From Verrucomicrobiota bacterium (lineage in GTDB: Bacteria > Verrucomicrobiota > Verrucomicrobiia > Limisphaerales > UBA8199), in assembly GCA_012517205.1 (NCBI GenBank), contig JAAYVL010000103.1:2413-66412 (forward strand): a stretch of DNA of 64,000 nt, in the 5' to 3' direction. The translations under genes were made by a program, and so were the position numbers. Shown here one piece after another: positions 4,613-59,929 of this stretch; positions within the stretch are counted from its first letter, which is position 1, and every line of letters starts with the position of its first letter. Below the pieces are notes generated by a model. That model had not been told where the DNA came from. It searched no databases and was given only the letters and a program-made list of their open reading frames with translations.

Positions 4613-4865
4613 GGCAGCTTGGGCATCTTCCACGGCGGGCTTGAAGGTGACGACGAGCACGCGCTTGGCCCCGAGCTTTTTGGCGAAATGGTGTAGTTCT
4701 TGATGTTGGCGGTCTTGAGTTGCTCGGCACGCGCTGCTTCACGCCGCGCGGAGTCTGCCCTATCTTGGGCAATCCCGCATGCGCCGGGTCGCCAATCGCG
4801 TAAGCATAAATACACGGGCGAGTTTCCGGTTTCGGGGCAAGGATTTCTTCGAGGATCTTACGCAT
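4612..4865 (-). pseudogene. N-terminal fragment of a GIY-YIG/T5orf172-helicase type restriction-associated gene (frameshifted, truncated by REP array 1)
   Basis: The ATG at 4865 overlaps the methyltransferase stop by 8 nt (ATGCGTAA). Three frames in succession give MRKILEEILAPKPETRPCIYAYAIGDPAHAGLPKIGQT, then AEQLKTANIKNYTI, then FAKKLGAKRVLVVTFKPAVEDAQ. These resemble a T5orf172 N-domain followed by the start of a helicase. The fragment ends in the REP array. The family call is from memory of motif style only. Confidence 0.45.
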
Positions 4866-6085
4866 CGCTCTCTCCCACCGGGCGAATAGTGGACTCAATG
4901 AACTCGATTTCGTCGGGAGTCAGCCGATATCTTTTGTAGAGTGCCTTATCGGGCCACGACTTTGAGAAGTCTTGGGCCGGGACAAAAACGAATGACCCGC
5001 GAGTGATGTTTTGGGTAAGCAGAATGGCAGAAACAAGGAATCGCACAAATCGCGTGCGCAGATATTCAGCAACGTGCTCCGCCTCCCGTTCTGATTTGAA
5101 CGGCCCTATAATTAAATATGACTCCGTCGCAACTGAATTTGGGGACATGACCTCAATTCTTGACAGCACGCGTTTCCGGCCCGACTTATCAGGCTGGCCT
5201 GCATGCTCGCTCGATGTTTTCGAGAGTAGAACTTTCCATTTCCCGATGAGTTCTGTCCCCTTAATAACATCTTTCCGATCAATCCGACAGTCGCCACTGC
5301 TGGTATATAAATATAGCTCGCCCGTTTTATTTCCCGCTTGGGCCGCAGCGATTCCGAATGGCCTTCTTGCAGAGACGAGGGTTGAAAACTCTCGCTCGCC
5401 TCGTGCTTTCACCTTCTTCACGATGCCGCGCACACGATTATCCCGGACGAAAACCTCATATTCGTTCAGGGATCTCTCCGCTATAACACTTTGGCCATTG
5501 GCGCGAGTCTCCACCATGCAAGTGCCGGGGTTGTCCCGATCCCAAAGGAAATACATAACGCCACCGGCAACATCCACCCCACTGAATGCGTCTCTTGAGT
5601 TCGGATAATCAATTAAATGCCTGATGCGCTGGTCCGAGAGCATCTTAGCGCGAAACTCGTCCAATCCTTTGCCTCCTGAGAACCATTTCGATGGCACGAT
5701 CATTGACAAAAATCTTGGTTCGAGCGAGAGCGCTTGCTCGATGAAACGATGATAGAGCGGTATGGCGCTTGAGCCGTCGCCTCCACCGTCATTAAGCTGA
5801 TACGGCGGGTTTCCAATGATGACGTCGAATTGCATGTTGCCTCCAAAAATCTCGGCGAGCCGAGTCTTGATGTTGCTGTGGGAATGAATGCGCAGGCGTG
5901 AGTTTCAAGTCCCGCCGCCCGGTCGAAAACGGATTTGCCCGCGCCGCAATAGAGGCACTGGTTGCCTTCTCAAGAGTGTTTGATGCACTGGAACCAGATG
6001 TTCCCATCGTCGTTGGAGAGGTTGGTGATGCAGGTCAGCATGTCGGGGTTGCACCCGCGGAGTGCAAAGTTGGTTTGGGCAATCA
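4858..6085 (-). pseudogene. Distal part of an Eco57I-type gamma-class N6-adenine DNA methyltransferase (NPPY catalytic half plus target-recognition region). It has one in-frame TGA and one frameshift upstream of the 325-aa ORF.
   Basis: ORF 4858..5835 starts MQFDVIIGNPPYQLNDGGGDGSSAIPLYHRF (motif IV) and has no AdoMet motif I. Its frame stays open upstream as NSRLRIHSHSNIKTRLAEIFGGN to a stop at 5905-5907. Another frame from 6086 reads MIAQTNFALRGCNPDMLTCITNLSNDDGNIWFQCIKHS, then TGA (5970-5972), then EGNQCLYCGAGKSVFDRAAGLETHA. The region is visibly more AT-rich than its surroundings. Confidence 0.7.
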
Positions 6086-7417: not shown

Positions 7418-8062
7418 TTATAGTGTTGCCTGCGGCGTCCTGGCGATCAGCTCACTCACAGTCATCGGGGGGTAGGTTTTGGTGGGCGTGAAAATCTCGT
7501 GCTTGCCGAGTTGGGCAAAGAGCGAGTCCTGAGCACTGAACGCCGAGGACAAAGTCAGGCTTTGCAGGCTAAAGTCGCGCCGCTGGTAACGTCCTTTCCA
7601 AAGATAAGCCCACTCGGCGAAGGTGATGGGCAAATTGTCCCAGGTGCGCATTTTCATGGCGTCGCCGTGGATGAGGTTGACCGACAGCACGCAGACGGCG
7701 GCGCGATAGAAATCATCGGAAGGTTCGAGATTCAAATACTCGGCGAAGATTTCCAGCAGATTGGCGCGGCAATCGGCAATGTTGTCCGGCAACAACTCGA
7801 TGCCATAAACGCACATCAGCGCGAGCAGTGCGTAGTGCCGCCGCTCGAAATCGGATTTGCCGTATTTGAGTTCCACAGCGGCGAGTTTGCGCCTGAGGAT
7901 CTGGACAAGGAAGTTGCCGTTGCCGCACGCCGGTTCCAGAAAGCGCGAGTCAATGCGCTTGGTTTCGCCCTTCACGAGGTCGAGCATGGCCTCGACCATC
8001 CACGCGGGGGTGAAAACCTCCCCGTGGTCGGCGACGCGTTGTTTGGACTTCACCAGCGCCAT
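7418..8062 (-). pseudogene. Proximal part of the same(?) gamma-class N6-adenine DNA methyltransferase (motif X and AdoMet-binding motif I). Its ORF ends a few codons into the REP insertion.
   Basis: 214-aa ORF MALVKSKQRVADHGEVFTPAWMVEAMLDLV...SRFLEPACGNGNFLVQIL...NLIHGDAM. There is no NPPY motif. The last codons (RTPQATL, stop) are read from sequence immediately next to degenerate REP units. Confidence 0.65.
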
Positions 8063-8349: not shown

Positions 8350-8427
8350 TGGTCGGGGCGGTGAGATTCGAACTCACGACCTCTTGTACCCGAAACAAGC
8401 GCGCTAGCCAGGCTACGCTACGCCCCG
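8350..8427 (-). tRNA. tRNA-Pro (anticodon CGG), CCA encoded
   Basis: Minus-strand read: CGGGGCGTAGCGTAGCCTGGCTAGCGCGCTTGTTTCGGGTACAAGAGGTCGTGAGTTCGAATCTCACCGCCCCGACCA. The acceptor stem is 7 bp (CGGGGCG/CGCCCCG). The anticodon stem is CTTGT/ACAAG with loop TTCGGGT. A GTTCGAATC T-loop is present. Confidence 0.9.
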
Positions 8428-10147: not shown

Positions 10148-11068
10148 ATGGCCGGGATGAAGACCGCGCAACAGCGAATCAAACTGGCCCGAATGGATCC
10201 GGAACAGGTGGCGGATGAGATCGGGGGCTTTATCGTGGAAGCCGTCCGCCGGCTGCGCAAGACCGGCGCGGTGCTGGGGCTGTCCGGCGGGGTGGATAGC
10301 ACCTGCGTGGCGGCCCTGGCGAAACGGGCCTTTGATCGGCATAACGCGCAGTCCCCCGATCAGCCGCTGGAGCTGGCCGGTTACATTTTGCCCTCGCGCA
10401 CCAGTGAGGCCAGGGACGTGGAGGACGCCCGCCAGGTCGCGACCCGGCTGGGGCTGCGGCATGAAGTCCAGAGCATCGAGCCCATCGTGGAAGCCTTCCA
10501 GACCACCAACCCCGAAGCGCTGCGCCATGCGTATCATCGCGGCAACCTGACTTCGGAGATTCGGGCGGTGATTCTGCATGCCAAGGCGGCCACGGAAAAC
10601 AAGAGCGTGATTGGCACCGGCAACCGGGATGAGGACTACGGAGTTGGCTATTATACGTTATTCGGCGACGGAGCGGTGCACCTGAGCCCGATCGGCAACC
10701 TGCCCAAGCGCCTGGTCCGGGAGATGGCGGCGCATCTCGGGTTCCAGGACCTGGCGGGCCGGGTTTCCTCGGCCGGCCTGGAGCCGGGGCAGACTTCGTT
10801 TAAGGACCTGGGCTGTGATTACGAATTTGCCGAGGTGATTCTAAACGGCCTGGACCAGGGCCTGCGGGCGGAGGAGCTTTCCGTGCATCCCCAGGTCGTG
10901 CCCTATGCCCGGCAGCAAATCGAGAAATACACGCAGTGGTATGGAGCGCCCAAATTTGCGTCCGTTCCGGAACTGGTGGCCGAGGTGTTGCGGCGGCATG
11001 AGCTCGCCCGGCTGAAAGTCCGGCTGGTCCAGCCCGACATCGCCCCGATCACCCTGACCCTGGAGTGA
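10148..11068 (+). CDS. nadE: NH3-dependent NAD+ synthetase
   Basis: LGLSGGVDSTCVAALAKRAF is a PP-loop SGGxDS motif. The length and overall pattern match NadE. The start could instead be the ATG at 10157. Confidence 0.85.
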   Translation: MAGMKTAQQRIKLARMDPEQVADEIGGFIVEAVRRLRKTGAVLGLSGGVDSTCVAALAKRAFDRHNAQSPDQPLELAGYILPSRTSEARDVEDARQVATRLGLRHEVQSIEPIVEAFQTTNPEALRHAYHRGNLTSEIRAVILHAKAATENKSVIGTGNRDEDYGVGYYTLFGDGAVHLSPIGNLPKRLVREMAAHLGFQDLAGRVSSAGLEPGQTSFKDLGCDYEFAEVILNGLDQGLRAEELSVHPQVVPYARQQIEKYTQWYGAPKFASVPELVAEVLRRHELARLKVRLVQPDIAPITLTLE

Positions 11069-11108
11069 GGGCGTCCCGCACGGGCGCGGTTCCCCCGGAG
11101 GACATCCG

Positions 11109-12374
11109 TCAGTCCGAGGAGATCAGCTTTTCCCAGAGCGTCTCGTTCAGCAGCACCTTTTGCAGGAAGCTTTCTTCGGTTTGCGGGGATGCGGCCCGGT
11201 TCGGATCGAGCGGCAACCGCAGCCGGAACGTGGTTCCGCGCCCGGGCTCGCTCCGGGCGTCAATCCATCCCCCGTGATGGTGCACGATGAAATAGCAAGC
11301 CATCAGGTGGATGCCATATTCGGCCGGACTGTCGCTGCGCAGCACAAACGGGTCGAACACCAGCCGCAGCGCCTCCTGGGGCAGCCCCGGTCCGTCGTCG
11401 TTCAGCTCGACCAGCACCTCGGGCTGGCCCGGCGGCCCGGCATCCAGCAGCTTGGCGGTCAGGGTGACCCGGTTGCCGGCGGACAGGCTGACGAGCTCAT
11501 CCCGGAGCAGCAGATCAAACAGCCGCGTGAACTTCGGCAGGTCCACGTTGAGCGCCGGCAGGGAGTCGGGGATGTGGTTCTCCACCACGATCTGCTTGCC
11601 GGCAAACGCATCCTTCAAGCTGGCGATGACGCCCGCCACCACTTCATGCAGATGCGCGCGGTTGGCAAACTCATAGGTGGGCTTTTCCGAAGCGGTCCAC
11701 AGATCCTTGAGCAGGTGGCTGATCTTTTCGATTTGCCCCTGGACGTTCTGGTAATACTCCTTCCAGAAATCCGGGTTGCGCAAACTCTCCATGTCCAGCT
11801 TCTCCTCGGCCATCTTGGAGGGCGCCAGGTCCAGGAACGTCTTGACCGCCACCAGCGCGTTGCGGATGTGGTGGCTCAGGCCGGCGGCCAGCAGGCCAAG
11901 GCTCACAATCCGGTCGGCAATCATCATATTGTGCAGCACGGACATTTTCTCCTTCAGCAACTGGTCGCGCTCGCGCTGCACCATGAAAAACTCCAGCCCG
12001 CGCTGCAGGGTGTTTTCCAGTTGCGGCACATCCCAGGGTTTGGTCACGTATTTGTAAATGGCGCCAGTGTTGACGGCGGCAATGGCCACCTCCATATCGC
12101 TGTAGGCGGTCGCCAGAATGCGAATGATGCGCGGGCGAAGCTGGCGCGCCTTTTCCAGCAGCCAGATGCCCTTCTCGCCGGGCATCCGCTGATCGGTCAT
12201 CAGCAGCCCGATTTCGTCTTTGTGCGCCTCCAGCAGCTTCAGCCCCTCTTGCGCATTAGGCGCGGTAAAGATGCGGAACTGATCCCGGAACGCCCGGGTA
12301 AAATACTTCAGGGACAGCTCTTCGTCGTCAACGTAGAGGATCGCAAATCTCTGGTAGTCGTAAAGATTCTGCAT
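11109..12374 (-). CDS. Response regulator with histidine-kinase-like output domain (PhcR-like architecture)
   Basis: N-terminal receiver: ILYVDDEELSLKYF...LLMTDQRMPGEKG...KPWD. This is followed by the H-box LAAGLSHHIRNALVAVKTF and a HATPase-like C-terminus (LNDDGPGLPQEALRLVFDPF...GRGTTFRLRLP) with a degenerate G2 box (EYGIHLMAC). Confidence 0.85.
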   Translation of the reverse strand: MQNLYDYQRFAILYVDDEELSLKYFTRAFRDQFRIFTAPNAQEGLKLLEAHKDEIGLLMTDQRMPGEKGIWLLEKARQLRPRIIRILATAYSDMEVAIAAVNTGAIYKYVTKPWDVPQLENTLQRGLEFFMVQRERDQLLKEKMSVLHNMMIADRIVSLGLLAAGLSHHIRNALVAVKTFLDLAPSKMAEEKLDMESLRNPDFWKEYYQNVQGQIEKISHLLKDLWTASEKPTYEFANRAHLHEVVAGVIASLKDAFAGKQIVVENHIPDSLPALNVDLPKFTRLFDLLLRDELVSLSAGNRVTLTAKLLDAGPPGQPEVLVELNDDGPGLPQEALRLVFDPFVLRSDSPAEYGIHLMACYFIVHHHGGWIDARSEPGRGTTFRLRLPLDPNRAASPQTEESFLQKVLLNETLWEKLISSD

Positions 12375-12396
12375 AGCCGTTGTCTGATCGTTTCAT

Positions 12397-13758
12397 TTAT
12401 GGCGTTCCCGGGGCGGGAAACTCCAGCGTAATCTCACAAAACTGGCCGGGCTCCGACCGCGCCGAAATCCGGCCGCCGCAATTCTGCATGATCGTGTGGC
12501 ACGTCGCCAGGCCCAGCCCCATGCCCTGGCCGACATCCTTGGTGGTGAAAAACGGGTCGAAGATCTTGTCCAGGTGCTCCGCCCCGATGCCGGGGCCGTT
12601 GTCCCGCACCCGCAGGATGCTCTTGCCCGGTTCGAGGCATCCCTCGATTTGAATGGCCGGGGGCTCGCCCGCGAAGGTCTTGGTCTTGAGCGCATCCAGC
12701 GAATTGGTCAGCAGGTTGAGCAGTGCCTGCGTCAGCAGGTTCTTGTTGGCCCAGACCGTTTGCCGCTCCGCCAGCTTCGACTCGATCCGCACCTTGCCTT
12801 TCCATTCGTTGCTCAGGAACCGCAGCGCCGCGGTGACCACTTCGGCCACCTCCACCGCGTCCCGGCTTTCGGTCTCGGGATGGGTGAACGTGCGCAAGCT
12901 GGATACAATATCCTTCACCCGCTGGACCCCATCCTCCACGTCCTTCAGCACATCCGCGTATTCCTCCTGCTCCGCGGGCGGCAGGTGCCGGCTCTTCTTG
13001 CGCAGCGTGAACAGCCCCGTCGCGGTGAAGTTCAGCGGATTGTTAATCTCGTGAATGATGCCCGCGCTCAGGCGGCCGAGCGACGCCAGCTTCTCGGATT
13101 GCACCAGTTGCAGCTCGGTTTCTTTGAGCTGCTGGATCGTGGCTTCCAGAATCCGGTTCTGCCGGTCCAACTGGTAGCGAAAGGCAAATTCCCCAAAGCG
13201 GATCTTGCTGTGAAAATAGCTGCCCGTGGCCACGATGATTCCCGTCAGCCCCAGGAAATAGACGTTGTTGACAAAAAGATGCCAGGCCACGGGACCCTGA
13301 TTAAAGAAGACCGCGGCCAGGTAGAGGCCCAGCACCAGCACGGCGGCGCACAGGCTCTCGCGAAACGTCCAATGCAGCACAAACGCCAGCACCAGCAGCA
13401 CCAGGTTCAGGCCGGCGTAGTAGGGCGAGGCCGCGCCATCCGGGCTGACCTTGATCATGTAGGCCATGCAGGAGGTGGGCAGCATGAACAGCGTGATGCC
13501 CAGGAACCGGTAATACTTGTGCCCCAGCGGCGTGAGCAGCAGGGCCAGGAAGGCGCCGATCAACACCGCGTTCTCCAGCCGCAATTTGAGGAATTGCGCC
13601 GCCAGCGCGGGATAAACCGCGTGGTCAATAATGACCCCGGCCGGCATCAGCACCATGCCAATCACGCAGGCCACCTTGAAGTTGCTGATCGTCTGCCGGC
13701 GATCATACTCCGCAAACGCCGCCTCGATCTCGCGGTTATGGGGCGCGCCGTCAGCCAT
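12397..13758 (-). CDS. Polytopic membrane sensor histidine kinase (PhcS-like position)
   Basis: The N-terminal half is hydrophobic, with about 6 predicted helices. HisKA: ASLGRLSAGIIHEINNPLNF. N-box: LLNLLTNSLDAL. G-boxes: VRDNGPGIG and GQGMGLGL. The start chosen is MADGAPHN at 13758, which overlaps the upstream stop by 8 nt (ATGGCTGA). The track start is 13788. Confidence 0.85.
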   Translation of the reverse strand: MADGAPHNREIEAAFAEYDRRQTISNFKVACVIGMVLMPAGVIIDHAVYPALAAQFLKLRLENAVLIGAFLALLLTPLGHKYYRFLGITLFMLPTSCMAYMIKVSPDGAASPYYAGLNLVLLVLAFVLHWTFRESLCAAVLVLGLYLAAVFFNQGPVAWHLFVNNVYFLGLTGIIVATGSYFHSKIRFGEFAFRYQLDRQNRILEATIQQLKETELQLVQSEKLASLGRLSAGIIHEINNPLNFTATGLFTLRKKSRHLPPAEQEEYADVLKDVEDGVQRVKDIVSSLRTFTHPETESRDAVEVAEVVTAALRFLSNEWKGKVRIESKLAERQTVWANKNLLTQALLNLLTNSLDALKTKTFAGEPPAIQIEGCLEPGKSILRVRDNGPGIGAEHLDKIFDPFFTTKDVGQGMGLGLATCHTIMQNCGGRISARSEPGQFCEITLEFPAPGTP

Positions 13759-15271
13759 GCTCCGGTTTCCTCGCTTCCACAAAAACATTCACCTCCGTCG
13801 GGTCCTTGAGGACGCGCGTCCGGGCGGCGGAAAGCCCCGGCGGCAGCAGCGCCGCGCTCTGCGCGGGGTTGCGGTAGAACAGGTGCCAGTCCAGCACAAA
13901 TTCCAGCATGTGGCGGAAAGGCTTGCAGTCCTCCACGTTGGTGGCCGCCAGCCGCCCGCCCGGCGCCAGCCAATCGTAAAGCCCCGCCATCACCTGCGCG
14001 GCGATCCGGTCCGACAGGTAATCCAGCAGGCCGGCGCAATAGATGAAATCATATTCCCGAACCGGCGCCGGCGCCGCCCGGGCGCCCTCTTTAATCACCT
14101 GCTGCACCGATTGCCGCCGGATGTCCAGCTCCACGCGCCGCCCATGGCGCCGCCGGCAATCCTCCAGCACCCGCTGAACGTGCCGCGTCGTTTCCTCGTT
14201 GAAATCCCACAGCTCGAAGCGCGCCGGGTGGCCCAAGGCGTCCTCGGCCAGGAACTCCTGGATTTCCCGCGCCGGGCCGCACCCCAGGCTCAACACGCGC
14301 AGCGGCTGCCCCCGGGCCGCCCGGCGGCGCGCCTCCTCCCGCAGCAGCCCCTTCAAATACTGAATGCGATTGCGGTGCGCCCGCGCCGGCCATTGGCTCA
14401 GGAACCACCGGTTTACCACCTTCGCAAACAGCGAGCCGCCCTCATGCGGGTCGCGCAAAATCATGTTCACCATCTCGTAGTCGCCCGCGTAGCCCAGCGG
14501 CTTGTGGTAGGTGCGATGCGCAAACGGCGCGCACAGGACCAGCGGATGCAACAGGCGCTGCGCGAAAACCTGGTGCACCGGCCGCAGCTCCGGCTCGAGG
14601 TCCGCCGCGATGCTCTCCAGGCGCTCATGCATCGCGTCGAACGCCGGCACCATGTCCCGTCCGATTTCGCGCGCGGCGGCTTCCTCCCGCTCCGCCCGCG
14701 CGCCGGGCCGGGCGGCGCGAATCTCCACCTCCGTCTGCTCCAGCCAGAGCCGCAGGTCGCTCAGAAAGGTCTGCATGTCGGCCACCACCACCTTGAAGGC
14801 GGGCCGCACGCGGTAGAGCTTCTGCCAATGGCCCAGGAACGCCTGAAACCCCTCGTGCAAGGGCGCGGGATCCTCGCCCGGGGAAAAGGAAGACAATCGA
14901 AAGCTCCCCTCATCCAGCCGGACTTCGCCGATCAGCATCGTGCCCGCGTTGATCAGCGCGGTGACCACCGCCCGCCCCTCATAAATTACCCGCCCTTGAA
15001 GAATGATCTGGAAGCCCTCGAGCACCTCCGAAAGCTGCAGCACCAGGCCGGGCTGGTAAATCTCCAGCACCGCCGAATACCGGGTAAGCCGCCGCAACCG
15101 GGCGCGCAGCTCCCCCGCCTGGCGGCTTGCGCCAAGAACCAGGTTCTCTGTGGACGCGCCGTTTTTCATGATCCGCGGGACCGCGGCCGTGAGCGTGTCG
15201 CAAGCGGGCGGGCGAAGCAACCCCTTAGCGGCCGCCCCGCTCGCGCTCGACTCCGTCCGTGGTCTTTTCAT
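13751..15271 (-). CDS. Class I SAM-dependent methyltransferase of the PhcB-like (hydroxy-fatty-acid methyl ester synthase-like) type, with an uncharacterised N-terminal region of about 200 aa
   Basis: YHKPLGYAGDYEMVNMIL is followed by the SAM motif RVLSLGCGPAREIQEFL. Later motifs are FDFIYCAGLLDYLSD and LAPGGRLAATNV. The start is uncertain: 15271 (MKRPRTE) or 15169 (MKNGAST). The track start at 15451 would overlap the upstream gene. Confidence 0.75.
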   Translation of the reverse strand: MKRPRTESSASGAAAKGLLRPPACDTLTAAVPRIMKNGASTENLVLGASRQAGELRARLRRLTRYSAVLEIYQPGLVLQLSEVLEGFQIILQGRVIYEGRAVVTALINAGTMLIGEVRLDEGSFRLSSFSPGEDPAPLHEGFQAFLGHWQKLYRVRPAFKVVVADMQTFLSDLRLWLEQTEVEIRAARPGARAEREEAAAREIGRDMVPAFDAMHERLESIAADLEPELRPVHQVFAQRLLHPLVLCAPFAHRTYHKPLGYAGDYEMVNMILRDPHEGGSLFAKVVNRWFLSQWPARAHRNRIQYLKGLLREEARRRAARGQPLRVLSLGCGPAREIQEFLAEDALGHPARFELWDFNEETTRHVQRVLEDCRRRHGRRVELDIRRQSVQQVIKEGARAAPAPVREYDFIYCAGLLDYLSDRIAAQVMAGLYDWLAPGGRLAATNVEDCKPFRHMLEFVLDWHLFYRNPAQSAALLPPGLSAARTRVLKDPTEVNVFVEARKPEHG

Positions 15272-15327
15272 GCAATCTTCACGCGCCGGCGGACGTTTGC
15301 AACCCGCGCTTCCCGCCGCGCCCCGCC

Positions 15328-16665
15328 TCAGGCCGGAGGGCCGCCGCGGCCGCCGCCCGCCGCCCGCCACCCGCGCAGCAGCTTTCGCAGCATTCCCCAG
15401 CAGCCGTCCGCAATCCCCGCCGAGGCAAACGCCAGGTACACATCGGCGCACGGCAGCCAGCCGTTGGACGCAAAGTAAAGCGGCCGCTCGGCGCCGCGGT
15501 ATTTCGATTTGTGAAACGACAGGCCCTGAAAATTATACAGGCCATTGCCAAAACGGGCGCTCCACCGGAACAACTGCCGGGCCGCCCAGTCGTCGTTGAA
15601 CGCCCCGCACTCCAGCTTCCCAAAGGGCGCCAGCAGCAAATTGAGCACCTCCACCCCCTCCGCCCGGAATGTTTCCATGGCTACCATGTGCAGGGCCGTG
15701 GCCAGCCGCCCAAACCGCCGCTCGTCGCAGCGCACGATGTTCGCCGAATAGCCAAACACCCGTCCGCCGCGATACATCGGATCATAAAACGCAAACCCCG
15801 CCACCCGGCGCTCCGGGTCGTAGGCGACAAACTTGCGCACGCCTTCCTCCGGCTCGAAAACCGGGCGGCGCGCATAAAGCCAAATCTCCCGGTCATTGAT
15901 CTTCCGGGAGCGAACCCAACGGGCCGAGAAGGCTTTCAATTCCCGCCGCCGCTGCTTCAGGCTCATCCCGCTTTCCTCGCGGATGGTCAGCCCCTCACGC
16001 CGCGCCTCATTGCGGGCGCGCTTGATCAAGTCCAATTCCTTCCAGTTGCCTTCCGTGTTGTAGGTCTGAACCGCCATGAGCGGCTCATACCCGATGCAAT
16101 TCACTTTGAAGCCCAACGGCCGCAGCGCCCGGGCGCACGCCTCGGAAATGACGCCGAAGGCCGCGTGCCGGTCTTGCGCCAAAAAGCTGCCCACCAGGGC
16201 CGGAACGTCCTCCGGCGCGCAGATCGGGTCGGAAAAAACAATGCGCCGGGGCCGGCGCGCCCAGAGCGGGTGCCGGGCTCGCGTATAGGCAATATAACCA
16301 CTCGGGCCGATAAAATACTCCATCCCCGACTGCAGCGTCGCGTAGGCGATGCCCTCCCGCCCATGCTGCCGCAGAAACGGCGAAAGCAAATCCCATTTCT
16401 GCCGGGAATCCAACGCCCGGGCGCTTTCTCCTTCCAGAACGCGTATGCCGGCGCCTTGCGCCGGGCTGGCAGCCTCCGCCCCTCGCACCCCGGCCTTCGG
16501 CGCCCGCCGGATCCAGCCATCCGCCCGCTCCCGCCTCGCTACGGGGATAAAACTGGCCGGCTGGGCATCGGCGCCGGCAAGCAATGCCGCATCCGAATCC
16601 AAAACTGTGCCCTGACCGGAGTGGTGCATGGACCACGGCAGCGCAGAACTAGACGGCCAATTCAT
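15328..16665 (-). CDS. DUF2156 / MprF C-terminal (LPG_synthase_C)-like aminoacyl- or acyl-transferase domain protein
   Basis: 445-aa ORF. The C-terminal NFQGLSFHKSKYRGAERPLYFA resembles the conserved FKxKF...W.PRY tail of the aminoacyl-phosphatidylglycerol synthase domain. There is no membrane flippase domain. Confidence 0.7.
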   Translation of the reverse strand: MNWPSSSALPWSMHHSGQGTVLDSDAALLAGADAQPASFIPVARRERADGWIRRAPKAGVRGAEAASPAQGAGIRVLEGESARALDSRQKWDLLSPFLRQHGREGIAYATLQSGMEYFIGPSGYIAYTRARHPLWARRPRRIVFSDPICAPEDVPALVGSFLAQDRHAAFGVISEACARALRPLGFKVNCIGYEPLMAVQTYNTEGNWKELDLIKRARNEARREGLTIREESGMSLKQRRRELKAFSARWVRSRKINDREIWLYARRPVFEPEEGVRKFVAYDPERRVAGFAFYDPMYRGGRVFGYSANIVRCDERRFGRLATALHMVAMETFRAEGVEVLNLLLAPFGKLECGAFNDDWAARQLFRWSARFGNGLYNFQGLSFHKSKYRGAERPLYFASNGWLPCADVYLAFASAGIADGCWGMLRKLLRGWRAAGGGRGGPPA

Positions 16666-16961
16666 CTCTTAAGCCCCAATTACAGCGTTCCCGGTGCCAA
16701 CCGTGCGCCACAGGCAGGAAAAATGCAAAAATCTCGCCTTTTCAGGGACTTTACGCGCGAAGGGCGCCGCAAATCGCCCAATTTCACCGGAAACCCCTGA
16801 ACCGGCGCAAATCGTCCAGAACGCATTTGTGACATGGCCACCATGGACAATCCCATCCCCCTCCGGGTTTAACCCCCTCCGCGGGCGCGCCAGGCCGCTT
16901 TTTCGCCCATTCTACAAGCGCTGGCGACCCCACGGCATGGCCCTCGCCAGTTCTAAGCCGT

Positions 16962-17209
16962 CACGATTCAGTTGGGCAACTCAACTGCCAGCCCCCATTC
17001 CATCAGAATCAGGACAGCCCTGATCGCCCCGGCCACAGCCTTGGCGAACCCTTTGTTTAGCAACTTCAAGGGCATGGCTGCTGAATCCCGAGCCTTTCGC
17101 CAGTAAAATCCAGGGTTTAGGCATAAAGAGGGGTAAAATAGCGGCAAAATCTCAATCATCCCGGCTTCGGCGCACCCTGGACATACCCTGAATCTACCCT
17201 GCCTCCAAG
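16962..17209 (-). repeat. Conserved flanking module M, copy A-left (reads on the minus strand away from the hairpin)
   Basis: The reverse complement aligns by eye along its length with 32412-32655. Example of shared sequence: CCTAAACCCTGGATTTTACTGGCGAAAGGCTCGGGATTCAGCAGCCATGCCCTTGAAGTTGCTAAACAAAGGGTTCGCCAAGGCTG versus CCTAAACTATTGATTTTACAGGCGAAAGGCTCGGGGTTCAGCAGCCACGCCCTTGAATTGGTTAAACACAGAGTTCGCCAGGGCTG. Confidence 0.8.
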
Positions 17210-17306
17210 CCGTGTACAAGGGGTGTACAAGGGATGCCCATCGGGAGTCCATAGGATTTTAGCTGGTACATCCGGTGAGCATCCCTTGTACACCCCTTGT
17301 ACACGG
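17210..17306 (-). repeat. Iteron hairpin element, copy 1 (GTGTACAAGGG x2 arms)
   Basis: Left arm: CCGTGTACAAGGGGTGTACAAGGGATGC at 17210-17237. Right arm: GCATCCCTTGTACACCCCTTGTACACGG at 17279-17306. The loop motifs run in the opposite sense to copies 2-4. Confidence 0.9.
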
Positions 17307-17740
17307 CCTGAAGGCAGGGTAAATCCAAGGGGTCTGGGTAGTGAATCTGGATGCCGGAAAAGGCCGAAATCGCGGGGCGGAACGGGAGGTTGAACTCCAA
17401 GCTGCGAAAAAACCGCCAGTTGTGAATCTTTGGCGGATATGAGCGAGATTTCCGAGGGAATCAGATCGCCCGGAAATCGCCCGGCTTAATAAGTGGCTGA
17501 TCCGAAGCGACTTAGCTGGAGGCTTCCATCGCACGCCATCGTTCTATCGAAATCCATTCCACCGCTCCCTGTATGTGTAAACCATTGATTTTATAGTCGA
17601 ACGGTATTTTGGATTTAATGTTTATGCCGTTGAATTTGCTAAAAAAGAGGGTTGCCGGAGCCACGGTCTGGGCGGCCTGGGCTGATCAGGCTCTGATGGA
17701 ACGGAGGCAGGCAGTTGAGCATTTCTCCTGAATCGTTCCG
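17307..17740 (+). repeat. Conserved flanking module M, copy A-right (inverted relative to A-left, with about 200 bp of extra internal sequence)
   Basis: It starts CCTGAAGGCAGGGTAAATCC, compared with CTTGGAGGCAGGGTAGATTC in A-left. The core at 17577-17665 is GTAAACCATTGATTTTATAGTCGAACGG...GCCGTTGAATTTGCTAAAAAAGAGGGTTGCCGGAGCC. The end ...GGCAGTTGAGC...CTGAATCGTTCC matches the other copies. Confidence 0.7.
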
Positions 17741-17962
17741 GCTAAAGGTCCTTGAAGCTGGCAAAAACCATGCGTGACCCTTGCCGGGCTGAGCGAGTGG
17801 GGGTTAACCGCCGCAGAATCAGGGAAAAATCTTCGGGGCACCGTCCCGTCCAGCCCTAATACAGCATGTCCCAAGCCGGGGCAAAGCCAGCCGGGAGGAA
17901 ACCGTCTCGCAGGTCGTCAGAGTTGGGCCGCGGCGGGCCTCTGGAAAACGCCTTCTGTCAGT

Positions 17963-19267
17963 TCAAAAGCGCGCCCCCACCGTCAGCATTACGGCGTGGC
18001 TGAGGAAATCGTAAGTGCCATCCGCCCGTTCGCCGGAGCTCAAGGCGGGCTGCGAGGAGGGTTTGCTGCCGGTGACCTTGTGGCTCGGGCCGTAGCCGAA
18101 TTGATAGGCCAGGTCGAAATTGTAGCGCTTTCCCCGGAACCCGCCGCCGATGCTGAAAAAGTGCCGGTCCAGGTCCGCCGCCAGCGGGGTGTAATAGGCG
18201 TTCGGCACGGAGTTCTCGCTAAAGGCGTAACCGGCGCTCAGATGCCAGCCGGGCTCGAAGTATCGAGTCACGCCAAAGGAGTAAATCCAACTGGATTGCC
18301 AGTAGAGTTTGACATCCACGTTTCTGGAAATGGGATACGGCGGGGCGGGCGATTGGTAGAGCGTGGTTTTGCCAAAGCTGCTCCACTCCGTGTAATCCGC
18401 GTTAAACTCCAGGTTCCATTTCGGGGTGGGCCGGTAGGAAATCCCCACCACGGCCGTTAAGGGGAAGTCCAGTTCCATGTGCGCCGAGCGCCGTCCCTGC
18501 TTGATGTTCGGCTGGCGCAAAAAGTCCGTATTTCCCTCCAGTTTCACCGGGGCTGCACCGCGAAACGTTGCGCCCAGCGAGAGTTTCCTATGCGGCTGGA
18601 AAAGCACGCCCAGGTTGTAACTCTCGCTCCAGCCATCCCCCTTAAAGCGGAAGTAATCCTTCAAAAGCGGGCTGAGCTTGCGCAGCCCCTGCTCCATTTC
18701 CAGGTCCACGTAATTGATCATCAGGCCGCCGCCCAGCGACAGCCAGGACGCCGGCCGGAACGCCACCACCGGGTTGATGGTCGCGTAAGTCAGCGAGGCG
18801 TCCGTGGCGATCGAGCGGAAACCCGTGTTCTGCGGCCAGCTTATGCTGCCGCCATACGGCGCATAAAGCCCCACGCCAAAGCTCAGCGGCCAATCCCGGG
18901 GCGTGTAAGTGGCAAACCCCTGGGGAACCGCCGCCCAGGAATCCTTGATATGATACGTATTGGTGCGGCCTGGCCCGGGCGGCGTAAAGCGCGGCTCGTA
19001 GTAAAGCCCGCTGATTCCGCCCCGGAAGTTGAGCCCCTCAAGCTGGGTAATGCCCGCCGGATTGTAGAAAACGGCCGAGGCATTGTCGGCGGTGGCAACG
19101 AACGCCTCCCCGCGCGCCGTCGCAAAGGCATCCTGGCCTCCCAGCCGGAAGCCGTTGGCCGGGGCCTCCAAGGCCCAGGCCCCCCACAGCAAAACCGTCA
19201 GCAAACCGGAAATCGTCCGCCGGTTATTGATCATAGTCAGTCCAGTCAAATTAGCACGCCGCCTCAC
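17963..19267 (-). CDS. Outer-membrane beta-barrel transport protein, OMPP1/FadL/TodX family
   Basis: A signal-like N-terminus is followed by GFRLGGQDAFATARGEAFVATADNASAVFYNPAGI and a terminal aromatic ...TVGARF. The start may be MINNRRT at 19234. Confidence 0.8.
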   Translation of the reverse strand: MRRRANLTGLTMINNRRTISGLLTVLLWGAWALEAPANGFRLGGQDAFATARGEAFVATADNASAVFYNPAGITQLEGLNFRGGISGLYYEPRFTPPGPGRTNTYHIKDSWAAVPQGFATYTPRDWPLSFGVGLYAPYGGSISWPQNTGFRSIATDASLTYATINPVVAFRPASWLSLGGGLMINYVDLEMEQGLRKLSPLLKDYFRFKGDGWSESYNLGVLFQPHRKLSLGATFRGAAPVKLEGNTDFLRQPNIKQGRRSAHMELDFPLTAVVGISYRPTPKWNLEFNADYTEWSSFGKTTLYQSPAPPYPISRNVDVKLYWQSSWIYSFGVTRYFEPGWHLSAGYAFSENSVPNAYYTPLAADLDRHFFSIGGGFRGKRYNFDLAYQFGYGPSHKVTGSKPSSQPALSSGERADGTYDFLSHAVMLTVGARF

Positions 19268-19876
19268 CTAAACACGGAACGCCCCCCCAGACAAGCAGGT
19301 TTCCTGCCGCGCCGGCCGGAAAACCTGCCACTCAGAGCCAATCCCGCTCGCCGCACTCCTTTGGATTGCCATCGCTGCGCTCCCTTGCCCCGGGGCTTGC
19401 GGCCCCGCGGGCGCTTCGAGGCCTGCAAACTGCGCCGCTGGCAAGGCGGCGGGGCAGTTTTTCGGAGCCGCGCTTGGCTTTCTGGCTGCCTTATGCTTGC
19501 CGCTGGCGGGACAAGGCGGTACGCTGGAGCCGCATAAAGCAAAACATGCGGGCGTGAGTGGCATCGAGAGAAAGAGTGACTCGACGAATGCGGCGGATGC
19601 CCATTATAACGGGCCGACGGGGCAGGTTCCATACAAGGAACTGGCCGAGGTGTTCAAGGCTTCGAGGGTGCGCGTTCGGGACGGGGACGCGCGTGAGCCA
19701 AGCGCGGGATGATCTGCGCGCACGGGGTTGCGCCACCATGCGGAGTATCTTTCGGATGGGAATCGCGGTTCGCGCGCCCGCTCGCGCCAGGCGCTGCGTG
19801 GGCGAAGTGGGCGCAGCGGGTCTGGATGCTATCGTAAGGCAAACACCGCCAAACTTCGGGCAAACAACGAAATCCT

Positions 19877-21391
19877 ATGAGCGCAGAGAACCCGGCAGCC
19901 AGCGAGAACACAAAACAGACCACCGCCTGCAGTCGGCGCGACGCCCTCAAATTCCTGGGGGCGGCCACCGCCGGACTGGCCGTGGCGGCAGCGCCGCCGG
20001 CAATGGCCGCCGCCGGCCCCGCGAAAGGGGCGAATCCCGATGGCGGCGCCCCTGGGAGAGGCATCAGTCGTGAAACGCTGAGCTCACGCGGGAGCGCACA
20101 AGGCGGCATCCTGCCCGTCAAATACGAGGTGGCGGTCTGCGGCGGAGGCCCGGCCGGCCTGATGGCCGCGATTGCCGCCGCGCGAAACGGAGCCAAAACC
20201 ATTCTGATCGAGCGGTATGGCTTTCTGGGCGGGATGGCCACGCAGTCATTGGTCAGCCCGTTAAGCGTATTTAACAAAAACCGGAAAAGGATTATCGGCG
20301 GGATTCCGCTGGAGTTTGCCGAACTGATGGAGACGCTCGGAGGCGCGGACACCACTTACCCGTCCGGGAACATTCACTTTGATCCGGAGATTTACAAGCT
20401 TGCCGCCCAACGAATGGTCTTTGCATCCGGCGGGTCGCTGATTTTGCATTCCTATATTTCCGGATGTCTCAGGGAGGGGGATGGAAATGGCAGAATCACG
20501 GGCATTGTGATCGAGAATAAATCAGGTCGGCAGAAAATCGAAGCCCGGTATTTCATTGACTGCACCGGCGATGCGGACGTGATAAAGTTTGCGGGTCTTC
20601 CGTATGTGATGGGGGACGGCGAAAGCCATGAACTGCAGCCCATGACGCTGTGGTTCAGGCTCGGCGGAGTGGATACGGACCGGCTTGAGAACATGGAGAT
20701 GCGAGAAAGCGGCAAGCGCCACGTCAATTCCCGCATCCGGGACGCGCTCCTCAAGCTGGGGAACGAGGCCCCGGTGCCTCAATTTGGCGGCCCGTGGATG
20801 TTCACAACTTTCCGAAAAGGAGAAGCCTCCGTAAATATGTCGCGCTATGCCGGGAACGGAACCGACGTGCTCAGCCTGACCCAGGCGGAATGCACTTTGC
20901 GCGAGGATGTCTTCAAACTGGTGAAGCTGTTGCGGGAGCACTTCCCGGAATTCAAAAACGCCTACCTTATTGACACCGGGACGCAGGTGGGAATCCGGGA
21001 AACCCGGAGAATCACCGGCTTATACGAGATGACCCTGGATGACATCATGGCCCCGAAGGATTTCCCGGATACCGTGGCCAAAGGCGGCCATCCTGTGGAT
21101 ATACACAAAGCGGGGAGCCGGGAGCAGGATCTCAGGGCAGTCAAAACCGGCTACAATATACCTTACCGATCCATGATTCCTGTGGGATCGGACAACTTAA
21201 TTGCCGCCGGAAGGCCGATCTGCGCGGCCCGGGAAGCGTTTGCCTCAATCCGGGTGCAGGCTACCTGTATGGCCCTGGGGCAGGCGGCGGGCACGGCGGC
21301 CGCGTTGTGCCATCAAAAGGATATTCCGGTCCATAAGCTGGACGGCGCGGAACTCAACGGCATTCTGCGCAAGCAAGGCGCGGTGGTATAA
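19877..21391 (+). CDS. Tat-exported FAD-dependent oxidoreductase (FAD_oxidored family)
   Basis: Twin-arginine-like leader: SRRDALKFLGAATAGLAVAAAPPAMA. Dinucleotide fold: YEVAVCGGGPAGLMAAIAAARNGAKTILIERYGFLGGMAT. Confidence 0.8.
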   Translation: MSAENPAASENTKQTTACSRRDALKFLGAATAGLAVAAAPPAMAAAGPAKGANPDGGAPGRGISRETLSSRGSAQGGILPVKYEVAVCGGGPAGLMAAIAAARNGAKTILIERYGFLGGMATQSLVSPLSVFNKNRKRIIGGIPLEFAELMETLGGADTTYPSGNIHFDPEIYKLAAQRMVFASGGSLILHSYISGCLREGDGNGRITGIVIENKSGRQKIEARYFIDCTGDADVIKFAGLPYVMGDGESHELQPMTLWFRLGGVDTDRLENMEMRESGKRHVNSRIRDALLKLGNEAPVPQFGGPWMFTTFRKGEASVNMSRYAGNGTDVLSLTQAECTLREDVFKLVKLLREHFPEFKNAYLIDTGTQVGIRETRRITGLYEMTLDDIMAPKDFPDTVAKGGHPVDIHKAGSREQDLRAVKTGYNIPYRSMIPVGSDNLIAAGRPICAAREAFASIRVQATCMALGQAAGTAAALCHQKDIPVHKLDGAELNGILRKQGAVV

Positions 21392-32303: not shown

Positions 32304-32411
32304 CCGTGTACAAGGGGTGTACAACGGGTGTACAACGGATGCTCACCAGATGTACTATGGAAAATCCTTTGTACACCCGTTGAGCATCCGTTGTACACCC
32401 CTTGTACACGG
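32304..32411 (+). repeat. Iteron hairpin element, copy 2 (three units in the left arm)
   Basis: Left arm: CCGTGTACAAGGGGTGTACAACGGGTGTACAACGGATGCTCACC at 32304-32347. Loop: AGATGTACTATGGAAAATCC. Right arm: TTTGTACACCCGTTGAGCATCCGTTGTACACCCCTTGTACACGG, ending at 32411. Confidence 0.9.
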
Positions 32412-47305: not shown

Positions 47306-47401
47306 CCGTGTACAAGGGGTGTACAACGGATGCTCAAGGGAAGCTCAAGGAAAAAAAGCATGTTCACCCGGTGAGCATCCCTTGTACACCCGTTGTACAC
47401 G
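47306..47401 (+). repeat. Iteron hairpin element, copy 3
   Basis: Left arm: CCGTGTACAAGGGGTGTACAACGGATGCTCA at 47306-47336. The loop contains CAAGGAAAAAAAGC. Right arm: GGTGAGCATCCCTTGTACACCCGTTGTACACG at 47370-47401. Confidence 0.9.
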
Positions 47402-59832: not shown

Positions 59833-59929
59833 CCATGTACAAGGGGTGTACAAGGGATGCTCACCGGGTGAACACGGAAAAATCTGATGTGCATCCGGTG
59901 AGCATCCCTTGTACACCCCTTGTACACGG
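59833..59929 (+). repeat. Iteron hairpin element, copy 4 (best preserved)
   Basis: Left arm: CCATGTACAAGGGGTGTACAAGGGATGCTCACCGG at 59833-59867. Spacer: GTGAACACGGAAAAATCTGATGTGCAT, 27 nt. Right arm: CCGGTGAGCATCCCTTGTACACCCCTTGTACACGG at 59895-59929. The arms are complementary at 34 of 35 positions. Confidence 0.95.

Follow-up and report, generated by a model that had tools for sequence, protein, structure and literature searches.

A stretch of 64,000 nucleotides from the genome of a soil or freshwater Verrucomicrobiota bacterium (contig JAAYVL010000103.1; the whole stretch is referred to here as the window) carries four co-oriented minus-strand open reading frames (ORFs). In the order of reading they encode a DUF2156-family protein, a methyltransferase, a polytopic histidine kinase and a soluble protein with a receiver domain, called here the receiver protein (Table 1). 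A first-pass annotation of this sequence had proposed that these genes form a lipid-signal operon of the phcBSR type known from Ralstonia solanacearum, headed by the DUF2156 gene. The four ORFs were all found where it had placed them. The 8-nucleotide overlap between the methyltransferase and kinase genes (ATGGCTGA) and the 22-nucleotide gap between the kinase and receiver-protein genes were read in the sequence, the 56-nucleotide gap between the DUF2156 and methyltransferase genes derives from the ORF coordinates, and the motifs that had been quoted (KPLGYAGDYEMVNMIL and LSLGCGPAREI in the methyltransferase, SHHIRN in the receiver protein) were found in the ORF translations. A fifth gene of the same strand, coding for an outer-membrane channel of the FadL family, lies upstream across a long spacer; in close relatives it opens the conserved cluster. 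The gene 3' of the receiver-protein gene is a convergent NAD synthase gene, and the cluster is flanked by housekeeping genes, none of them related to lipid catabolism. Judged by alignment and gene order, the trio of methyltransferase, kinase and receiver protein is a distant but complete-looking homologue of the Phc cassette. We consider it probable, at roughly 0.6, that the locus is a Verrucomicrobial version of this lipid-ester signalling cassette that works by the mechanism proposed below. What had been observed in the sequence was confirmed, and the interpretation given to it is partly supported.

Table 1. Genes of the cluster and repeat copies, in positions of the window.
Feature	Positions	Strand	Basis or remark
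DUF2156 gene	15328-16665	minus	Pfam LPG_synthase_C/DUF2156
PhcB-family methyltransferase	13751-15271	minus	Cupriavidus PhcB alignment
PhcS-like polytopic histidine kinase	12397-13758	minus	Cupriavidus PhcS alignment, HisKA and HATPase_c
Receiver protein, PhcR/PhcQ type	11109-12374	minus	Pfam Response_reg, HisKA and HATPase_c
FadL/TodX-family outer-membrane channel for hydrophobic molecules	17963-19267	minus	Pfam Toluene_X 1.6e-47
FadL-DUF2156 spacer, 1297 nucleotides	16666-17962	no strand	holds REP-like palindrome at 17186-17330
REP-like element, copies	17186-17330, 32306-32409, 47308-47400, 59835-59927		each between listed long ORFs

Two Burkholderiales loci were used as proxies for R. solanacearum. 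The first is a Cupriavidus phcBSRQ locus (L082; fetched loci are designated by L numbers) that encodes PhcB (463 amino acids), PhcS (443 amino acids, MASE8, HisKA and HATPase), PhcR (381 amino acids, REC, HisKA and HATPase) and PhcQ (332 amino acids, REC). The second, found by a tblastn search of plasmids, is an operon of Paraburkholderia graminis comprising a methyltransferase, a kinase and two response regulators, and the comparison with this plasmid-borne operon agrees with that made with Cupriavidus. When the Paraburkholderia methyltransferase was used as the query, the matches came from Cupriavidus, Paraburkholderia, Massilia and Janthinobacterium, with no Ralstonia among the 120 matches listed.

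The methyltransferase of the window aligns with Cupriavidus PhcB at 35% identity over 466 amino acids (E 3e-98, pairwise), and its non-Rossmann N-terminal half does so on its own (31% over 212 amino acids, E 1.5e-36). Membership in the PhcB family, which the first-pass annotation had suggested, is thus borne out by a full-length match that includes the PhcB-specific N-terminal half. Pfam models of class I methyltransferases match residues 309-449 at or slightly under their gathering scores (Methyltransf_12 at 30.0 with a cut-off of 30, three other models slightly under). An alignment of 49 Verrucomicrobial and Burkholderiales methyltransferases has 70 invariant columns, among them KPLGYAGDY, AHRNR and the S-adenosylmethionine (SAM) motif GCGPA. 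An exhaustive HMMER search of clusters at 50% identity, with the first 290 amino acids (the PhcB-specific part) as the query, returned 1250 clusters at E <= 1e-3, 604 at E <= 1e-10 and 166 at E <= 1e-30, and homologues carry the JGI label 'extracellular factor (EF) 3-hydroxypalmitic acid methyl ester biosynthesis protein'. The structural model (predicted local distance difference test score, pLDDT, 86) combines a beta-barrel at the N-terminus with a long helical domain and a Rossmann fold of class I. Its closest solved folds in Foldseek are generic, being those of diverse small-molecule and natural-product methyltransferases. A sequence search of the PDB returned no homologue of the methyltransferase, and NCBIfam, which offered nothing specific for the group as a whole, has no model for it. 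A Pfam search at E <= 5 with its N-terminal 121 amino acids and with the membrane domain of the kinase was also empty; a PilZ-like identity of the beta-barrel is unsupported.

The start of the methyltransferase gene deserves a comment. Upstream of ATG 15169 the ORF has two further possible starts, ATG 15271 and GTG 15451, and from the latter it overlaps the 3' end of the DUF2156 gene. Because homologues are typically ~473 amino acids long and the alignment with Cupriavidus PhcB begins at M35 of the ORF, ATG 15169 may be a start at least as likely as ATG 15271, in which case the gap to the DUF2156 gene would be 158 nucleotides. The extra ~34 amino acids are present only in the closest relatives, L001 and L013. 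Since the methyltransferase starts within 5 nucleotides of the DUF2156 stop in two other loci, L087 and L089, the lineage of the window seems to have gained about 100-150 nucleotides between the two genes.

A pattern-limited scan with the methyltransferase over one genome per species identified 282 relatives, and 80 loci were fetched; downstream genes were counted at the 58 loci with at least 4.5 kb of downstream sequence and upstream genes at 52 loci. As labelled, the fetched relatives are overwhelmingly Verrucomicrobiota (Limisphaerales, Pedosphaera, Chthoniobacteraceae), with a few contigs labelled Deltaproteobacteria, Binatia or Acidobacteria. Some cassette contigs (L004, L011, L048, L053 and L073) are deposited under names like 'uncultured Bifidobacterium sp.' or 'Chitinophaga pinensis', the probable cause being wrong binning or labelling of contigs from metagenome-assembled genomes. 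A kinase gene and an orthologue of the receiver-protein gene follow the methyltransferase gene on its 3' side at all 58 loci, an arrangement far beyond chance, and the synteny of the trio is thus widespread outside the Burkholderiaceae. A FadL homologue is located within 4.5 kb upstream of the methyltransferase gene at 29 of the 52 loci. As the outer flanks (NAD synthase and an aminotransferase) were matched only in the closest relative, L013, the conserved unit is the cluster and not its neighbourhood. Promoter and terminator scans of positions 10900-19500 returned sites at a frequency not above that of shuffled sequence, none of them inside the intergenic gaps, and an Rfam scan of 10500-20000 at E <= 0.1 gave no match. 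The promoter and terminator scans being uninformative, operon status rests on spacing and synteny.

The kinase has HisKA and HATPase_c domains after a hydrophobic N-terminus, in which a crude hydropathy scan located at least four hydrophobic segments; the same scan found none in the methyltransferase, the receiver protein or the DUF2156 protein. It aligns with Cupriavidus PhcS at 31% identity over 422 amino acids (E 1e-61, pairwise), and the membrane sensor domain alone at 29% over 174 amino acids (E 2e-12), with the motif SPYYxGLNL in common. The H-box, HEINNPLN, is of the PhcS type, and H236 aligns with the histidine of Cupriavidus PhcS that corresponds to H230, the autophosphorylated residue of PhcS (PMC11960443). 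The identification of the kinase as PhcS-like holds on all three grounds, namely the full-length alignment, the membrane-domain alignment and the position of the phospho-accepting histidine. Cupriavidus PhcS carries a MASE8 annotation; the Pfam MASE8 model matched neither that protein nor the kinase of the window, and the evidence for the sensor domain is pairwise alignment.

At 45 of the 58 related loci the kinase is instead one protein of ~900 amino acids with an extra kinase core and a receiver, laid out as membrane domain, HisKA1-HATPase1, REC and HisKA2-HATPase2 (for example L086:9772-12471). The kinase of the window is a short form of 453 amino acids in which the membrane domain leads directly into the kinase core of the second type. 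Coiled segments that resemble each other (..DKNQK.. and ..SKQNQ..) border the extra block of the long sensors and suggest that recombination has deleted or inserted an internal stretch. The idea that the window kinase is a fusion of two genes of the relatives was rejected, because the relatives encode one ~900-amino-acid protein.

The receiver protein is soluble and consists of REC, HisKA and HATPase_c domains without a DNA-binding domain by Pfam, so its output is kinase-like, as had been noticed from the letters of the sequence. PhcR and PhcQ also lack DNA-binding domains (PMC8578825). Its assignment to PhcR needs qualification. The architecture is that of PhcR, and the whole protein aligns with Cupriavidus PhcR at 27% identity over 394 amino acids (E 3e-36), but the receiver and coiled linker are nearer to PhcQ (45% over 183 amino acids). 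A profile of 69 orthologues compared by hhalign gave the same picture, with 43% over 194 columns for PhcQ and 27% over 354 columns for PhcR. The degenerate G2 box reported by the first-pass annotation is real and is a family trait. Across the 69 orthologues the receiver aspartate (D61), the H-box (LsHhiRN, H168) and the G1 box (DnGPG) are kept, while the asparagine of the N-box is replaced (LLl.dE) and G2 reads e.Gi.LM, not GxGxG; Cupriavidus PhcR keeps both the N-box asparagine and G2. From these motifs, the kinase-like module probably cannot bind ATP normally and is more likely a phosphorelay or interaction domain. A tblastn search with Cupriavidus PhcQ matched only the receiver-protein gene, a separate phcQ being absent, and no LysR/PhcA gene was present among the ten flanking ORFs scanned.

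Taken side by side with phcBSRQ of Ralstonia and Cupriavidus, the window shares the order of a methyltransferase, a polytopic kinase and a soluble protein with REC and a kinase-like module. It also shares the PhcB motifs KPLGYAGDYEMVN, AHRNR and GCGPA, the sensor membrane domain, the position of the phospho-accepting histidine, and an output without a DNA-binding domain. It differs in belonging to another phylum with low identity, and in a third protein that combines a PhcQ-like receiver with a PhcR-like, ATP-site-degenerate kinase module. The window unit also has FadL and DUF2156 genes upstream, which the Cupriavidus locus lacks, and most of its relatives have the ~900-amino-acid double-kinase sensor. 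The proposal of a phc-type module outside the Burkholderiaceae consequently stands for the homology, order and wide synteny of the trio, but there is no separate phcQ and the DUF2156 gene is not a general part of it.

Other bacteria have signalling systems that are comparable by description. In Vibrio CqsA/CqsS and Legionella LqsA/LqsS/LqsR, as in the window, the synthase gene adjoins that of a polytopic kinase sensing a lipid-like signal, and phosphotransfer leads to a receiver protein without a classical DNA-binding domain. The CqsA and LqsA synthases are acyl transferases dependent on pyridoxal phosphate, a class unrelated to the SAM methyltransferase.

The product of PhcB is methyl 3-hydroxymyristate or methyl 3-hydroxypalmitate (PMC8578825, PMC11960443). 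In the mechanism that we propose for the window, the methyltransferase would O-methylate the carboxyl group of a fatty acid, probably a 3-hydroxy fatty acid, to give a hydrophobic, diffusible methyl ester. The FadL-type channel may help this ester to cross the outer membrane; one report links FadL to the modulation of extracellular long-chain acyl-homoserine lactones (PMC9938287). The kinase would sense the ester within the membrane and autophosphorylate on H236, from where the phosphoryl group would pass to D61 of the receiver protein. The latter, having lost the N and G2 boxes and kept the H-box, is predicted to function in phosphorelay or partner binding and not as a kinase or DNA binder. 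It might act through partners, as PhcQ acts on PhcA; PhcQ is reported to bind PhcA (PMC13320629).

Several facts weigh against this signalling scheme. Chemistry, secretion, density dependence and output are what we infer from homology. With no more than 27-35% identity to the characterised clade, the substrate and the signal may differ from those of Phc. The comparison was made through the Cupriavidus and Paraburkholderia proxies and not with R. solanacearum PhcB itself. Promoter and terminator predictions at 10900-19500 reach the level of chance only, the ATP-binding site of the receiver protein is degenerate, unlike that of Cupriavidus PhcR, and neither a separate phcQ nor, among the ten flanking ORFs scanned, a LysR/PhcA gene accompanies the trio. 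In addition, the double-kinase sensors of 45 of the 58 relatives make the signalling logic of most of the family unlike that of Ralstonia.

The first gene of the group raises a separate question. The DUF2156 protein matches PF09924 with 113.9 bits (cut-off 27.5, E 1e-32) over positions 8-297 of the 298 in the profile. With phmmer, its whole core matches the Bacillus licheniformis LysPGS (4v36, E 2e-8), Agrobacterium LpiA (5vrv) and Pseudomonas aeruginosa MprF; identity to the solved synthases is about 20% at E 2e-8. The AlphaFold model (core pLDDT mostly 85-95) has the double-GNAT fold of the aminoacyl-phosphatidylglycerol synthases (aaPGS) and superimposes on the synthase domains 5vrv, 4v36 and 6lv0 with TM-scores of 0.72-0.77. 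Between the two GNAT halves lies the basic helix LDLIKRARNEARREG (residues 212-223), in which K215, R216 and R223 are invariant. Conservation is poor over about the first 71-75 amino acids of the ORF, which are disordered in the model, and the conserved core begins at about residue 74. No flippase or transmembrane domain was detected in this protein, the hydropathy scan having found no hydrophobic segments, and the NCBIfam MprF equivalog scores 36 bits with a cut-off of 600. Given the lack of a membrane domain, the protein is a free-standing, soluble enzyme of the synthase type and not MprF. In its PF09924 domain, its double-GNAT fold and its basic inter-domain helix it resembles MprF/LysPGS/AlaPGS, LpiA, ErdS/ErgS and VlmA. 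It differs from the MprF type in having no flippase or transmembrane domain, in lacking a hydrolase partner in the window, and in being associated with a signalling cassette and not with an aminoacyl-tRNA synthetase or an antimicrobial-peptide-resistance regulon. By family and fold, the enzyme most likely moves an amino acid from an aminoacyl-tRNA to a lipid hydroxyl group.

A metagenome scan with the DUF2156 protein returned 37 loci and reached relatives of at least ~51% identity. Among those with enough downstream sequence, about 17 of 20 have the DUF2156 gene just upstream of the cassette, the exceptions being L111, L112 and L115, where no methyltransferase match follows. The usual layout, on one strand, is (FadL)-alpha/beta hydrolase-DUF2156-OprB porin-methyltransferase-kinase-receiver protein. 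The hydrolase is of the Hydrolase_4 or monoacylglycerol lipase type (for example L006:4383-5258, directly upstream of DUF2156), and the OprB porin gene stands between the DUF2156 and methyltransferase genes in most of these loci (L006:6446-7870, Pfam 9e-64). Many DUF2156 homologues are fusions of ~700 amino acids in which the hydrolase is N-terminal (P0276, P0281, P0286-P0300 and others); for a pair that serves homeostasis in lipid aminoacylation, the fusion of synthase and hydrolase in the cytoplasm is unusual. Neither hydrolase nor porin has a homologue in the 64-kb window, and the nearest relatives of the window also lack both. Packing can be very tight. In L087, FadL ends 1 nucleotide before the longest ORF containing DUF2156, the DUF2156 and methyltransferase genes are separated by 5 nucleotides, and the ORFs of the kinase and the receiver protein are contiguous or overlapping; L089 shows a 4-nucleotide overlap between the DUF2156 and methyltransferase ORFs. 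Among the methyltransferase-anchored loci, DUF2156 is upstream of the cassette in 7 of 52. Because the linkage is asymmetric, the DUF2156 gene being nearly always found with the cassette and the cassette usually without the DUF2156 gene, it is a lineage-specific accessory of the cassette, confined to a sub-clade. That this gene heads the operon, as the first-pass annotation had it, does not hold for the cassette at large.

What the DUF2156 enzyme does at the locus may be seen in two ways, of which an action on membrane lipids is somewhat more likely than one on the signal. In the first, which we favour only tentatively and at less than even odds, the enzyme, together with the hydrolase of the relatives, would be a membrane-lipid aminoacylation and homeostasis module like MprF/LpiA-AcvB or ErdS-ErdH that leaves the signal alone. 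The Phc-like two-component system would share a transcript with this module or control it, and the module would form part of an envelope-remodelling output with FadL and OprB. Both sequence and fold best match phosphatidylglycerol aminoacyl synthase domains, and the presence of two outer-membrane channel genes in the cluster fits an action on the envelope. Pairing of the synthase with a neighbouring alpha/beta hydrolase is the norm for lipid aminoacylation systems (PMC7334510) and recurs in the relatives of the window, where the two are neighbours, as in the aaPGS and ErdS pairs, or form the ~700-amino-acid fusions; the hydrolase, too, resembles monoacylglycerol lipases. Nonetheless, the known bacterial aaPG synthases have an integral membrane domain and the DUF2156 protein has none. 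The aaPG hydrolases known from bacteria are located outside the cytoplasm, but in this family the fusion partner of the hydrolase is a synthase of cytoplasmic type. The near-exclusive attachment to a Phc-like cassette would also be unexpected for a housekeeping lipid-modifying enzyme.

It is unlikely, in our estimate, that the DUF2156 enzyme takes part in making the signal. Its task would then be to esterify, from an aminoacyl-tRNA, the free 3-hydroxyl group on the hydroxy-fatty-acid methyl ester or on the precursor of that ester; the signal would be an O-aminoacyl hydroxy-fatty-acid ester, and in the relatives the hydrolase would trim or recycle it. In favour of this idea, the close relatives of the gene adjoin the cassette on its upstream side almost without exception (about 17 of 20 loci with enough flank) and cassettes in general rarely have the gene (7 of 52), an asymmetry expected of an accessory tailoring enzyme. 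The near-contact with the methyltransferase gene in L087 and L089 (5 nucleotides apart and a 4-nucleotide ORF overlap, respectively) and the lack of a membrane or flippase domain point in the same direction, and a small-molecule acceptor has a precedent within the family in VlmA. Characterised DUF2156 enzymes acylate lipid hydroxyls, the secondary 3-beta-OH of ergosterol among them (PMC7334510); a 3-hydroxy ester has a group of this kind. On the other hand, the linkage could partly reflect shared descent, since the DUF2156 scan was limited to relatives of at least ~51% identity, the hydrolase partner is absent from the window, and L111, L112 and L115 have the DUF2156 gene with no methyltransferase match downstream. 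Less likely still is the full two-enzyme version, where the PhcB-like methyltransferase and DUF2156 O-aminoacylation of the hydroxy-fatty-acid ester would together yield a new class of aminoacylated lipid autoinducer. To our knowledge, such a compound, if real, would be the first quorum-sensing signal whose synthesis uses aminoacyl-tRNA.

An alternative to cell-cell signalling itself also has to be considered. The methyltransferase could act on a hydrophobic compound from outside the cell, for instance a fatty acid that enters through FadL, so as to modify or detoxify it, and the kinase and receiver protein could sense this substrate, or the lipid state of the envelope, and regulate uptake and metabolism. 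FadL and OprB are uptake channels and the hydrolase found in the cluster is lipase-like. Moreover, the methyltransferase shares no more than 35% identity with PhcB, its structural neighbours are small-molecule methyltransferases of diverse kinds, and no PhcA or PhcQ output genes are found nearby, as judged from ten flanking ORFs and the phcQ tblastn search, respectively. We nevertheless regard this explanation as doubtful. All three core proteins, including the membrane domain of the sensor, are Phc-homologous and their order is strictly conserved, which suggests that the logic of a producer and its sensor has been conserved as well. In addition, the housekeeping genes that flank the cluster are unrelated to lipid catabolism. 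Lipid-ester signalling by a Phc-type cassette is the interpretation that we consider most probable for the locus.

Within the literature searched, Phc signalling is discussed only for Ralstonia and Cupriavidus, with no case outside the Burkholderiales. The core of the cassette belongs distantly to a known type of system, and automated annotation already labels it as such. New here are the operonic FadL gene, the DUF2156 gene (joined in relatives by the hydrolase and porin genes), the PhcQ-like third protein with a degenerate ATP site and the ~900-amino-acid double-kinase sensors of most relatives. The logic of these three proteins recurs across hundreds of Verrucomicrobiota genomes from soil, sediment and freshwater. 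Should such cassettes use fatty-acid esters as signals, lipid signalling by methyl esters would be a language widely spoken in the environment and not a speciality of pathogens, and the study of communication between cells in this phylum, of which few members are in culture, would gain a concrete entry point. The tight coupling to DUF2156 offers a testable route either to new signal chemistry or to a link between quorum-type sensing and membrane-lipid aminoacylation.

The spacer between the FadL and DUF2156 genes is considerably longer in the window (Table 1) than in the relatives, where it measures about 1-650 nucleotides. The palindrome that it holds is an inverted repeat with 59-nucleotide arms that are 88% complementary. 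It is one of four copies in the 64 kb of a palindromic element resembling repetitive extragenic palindromic (REP) sequences, with a core of ~95 nucleotides (GCCGTGTACAAGGGGTGTACAAGGGATGCTCAC ... GGTGAGCATCCCTTGTACACCCCTTGTACACGGC); zero copies are expected by chance. Elsewhere in the window, two separate minus-strand ORFs at 4858-5835 and 7418-8062 match fragments of type II restriction-modification DNA methylases, the matched domains being the Eco57I methylase domain and the MmeI methyltransferase domain. Both may derive from a disrupted gene, located beside a tRNA-Pro gene at 8350-8427.

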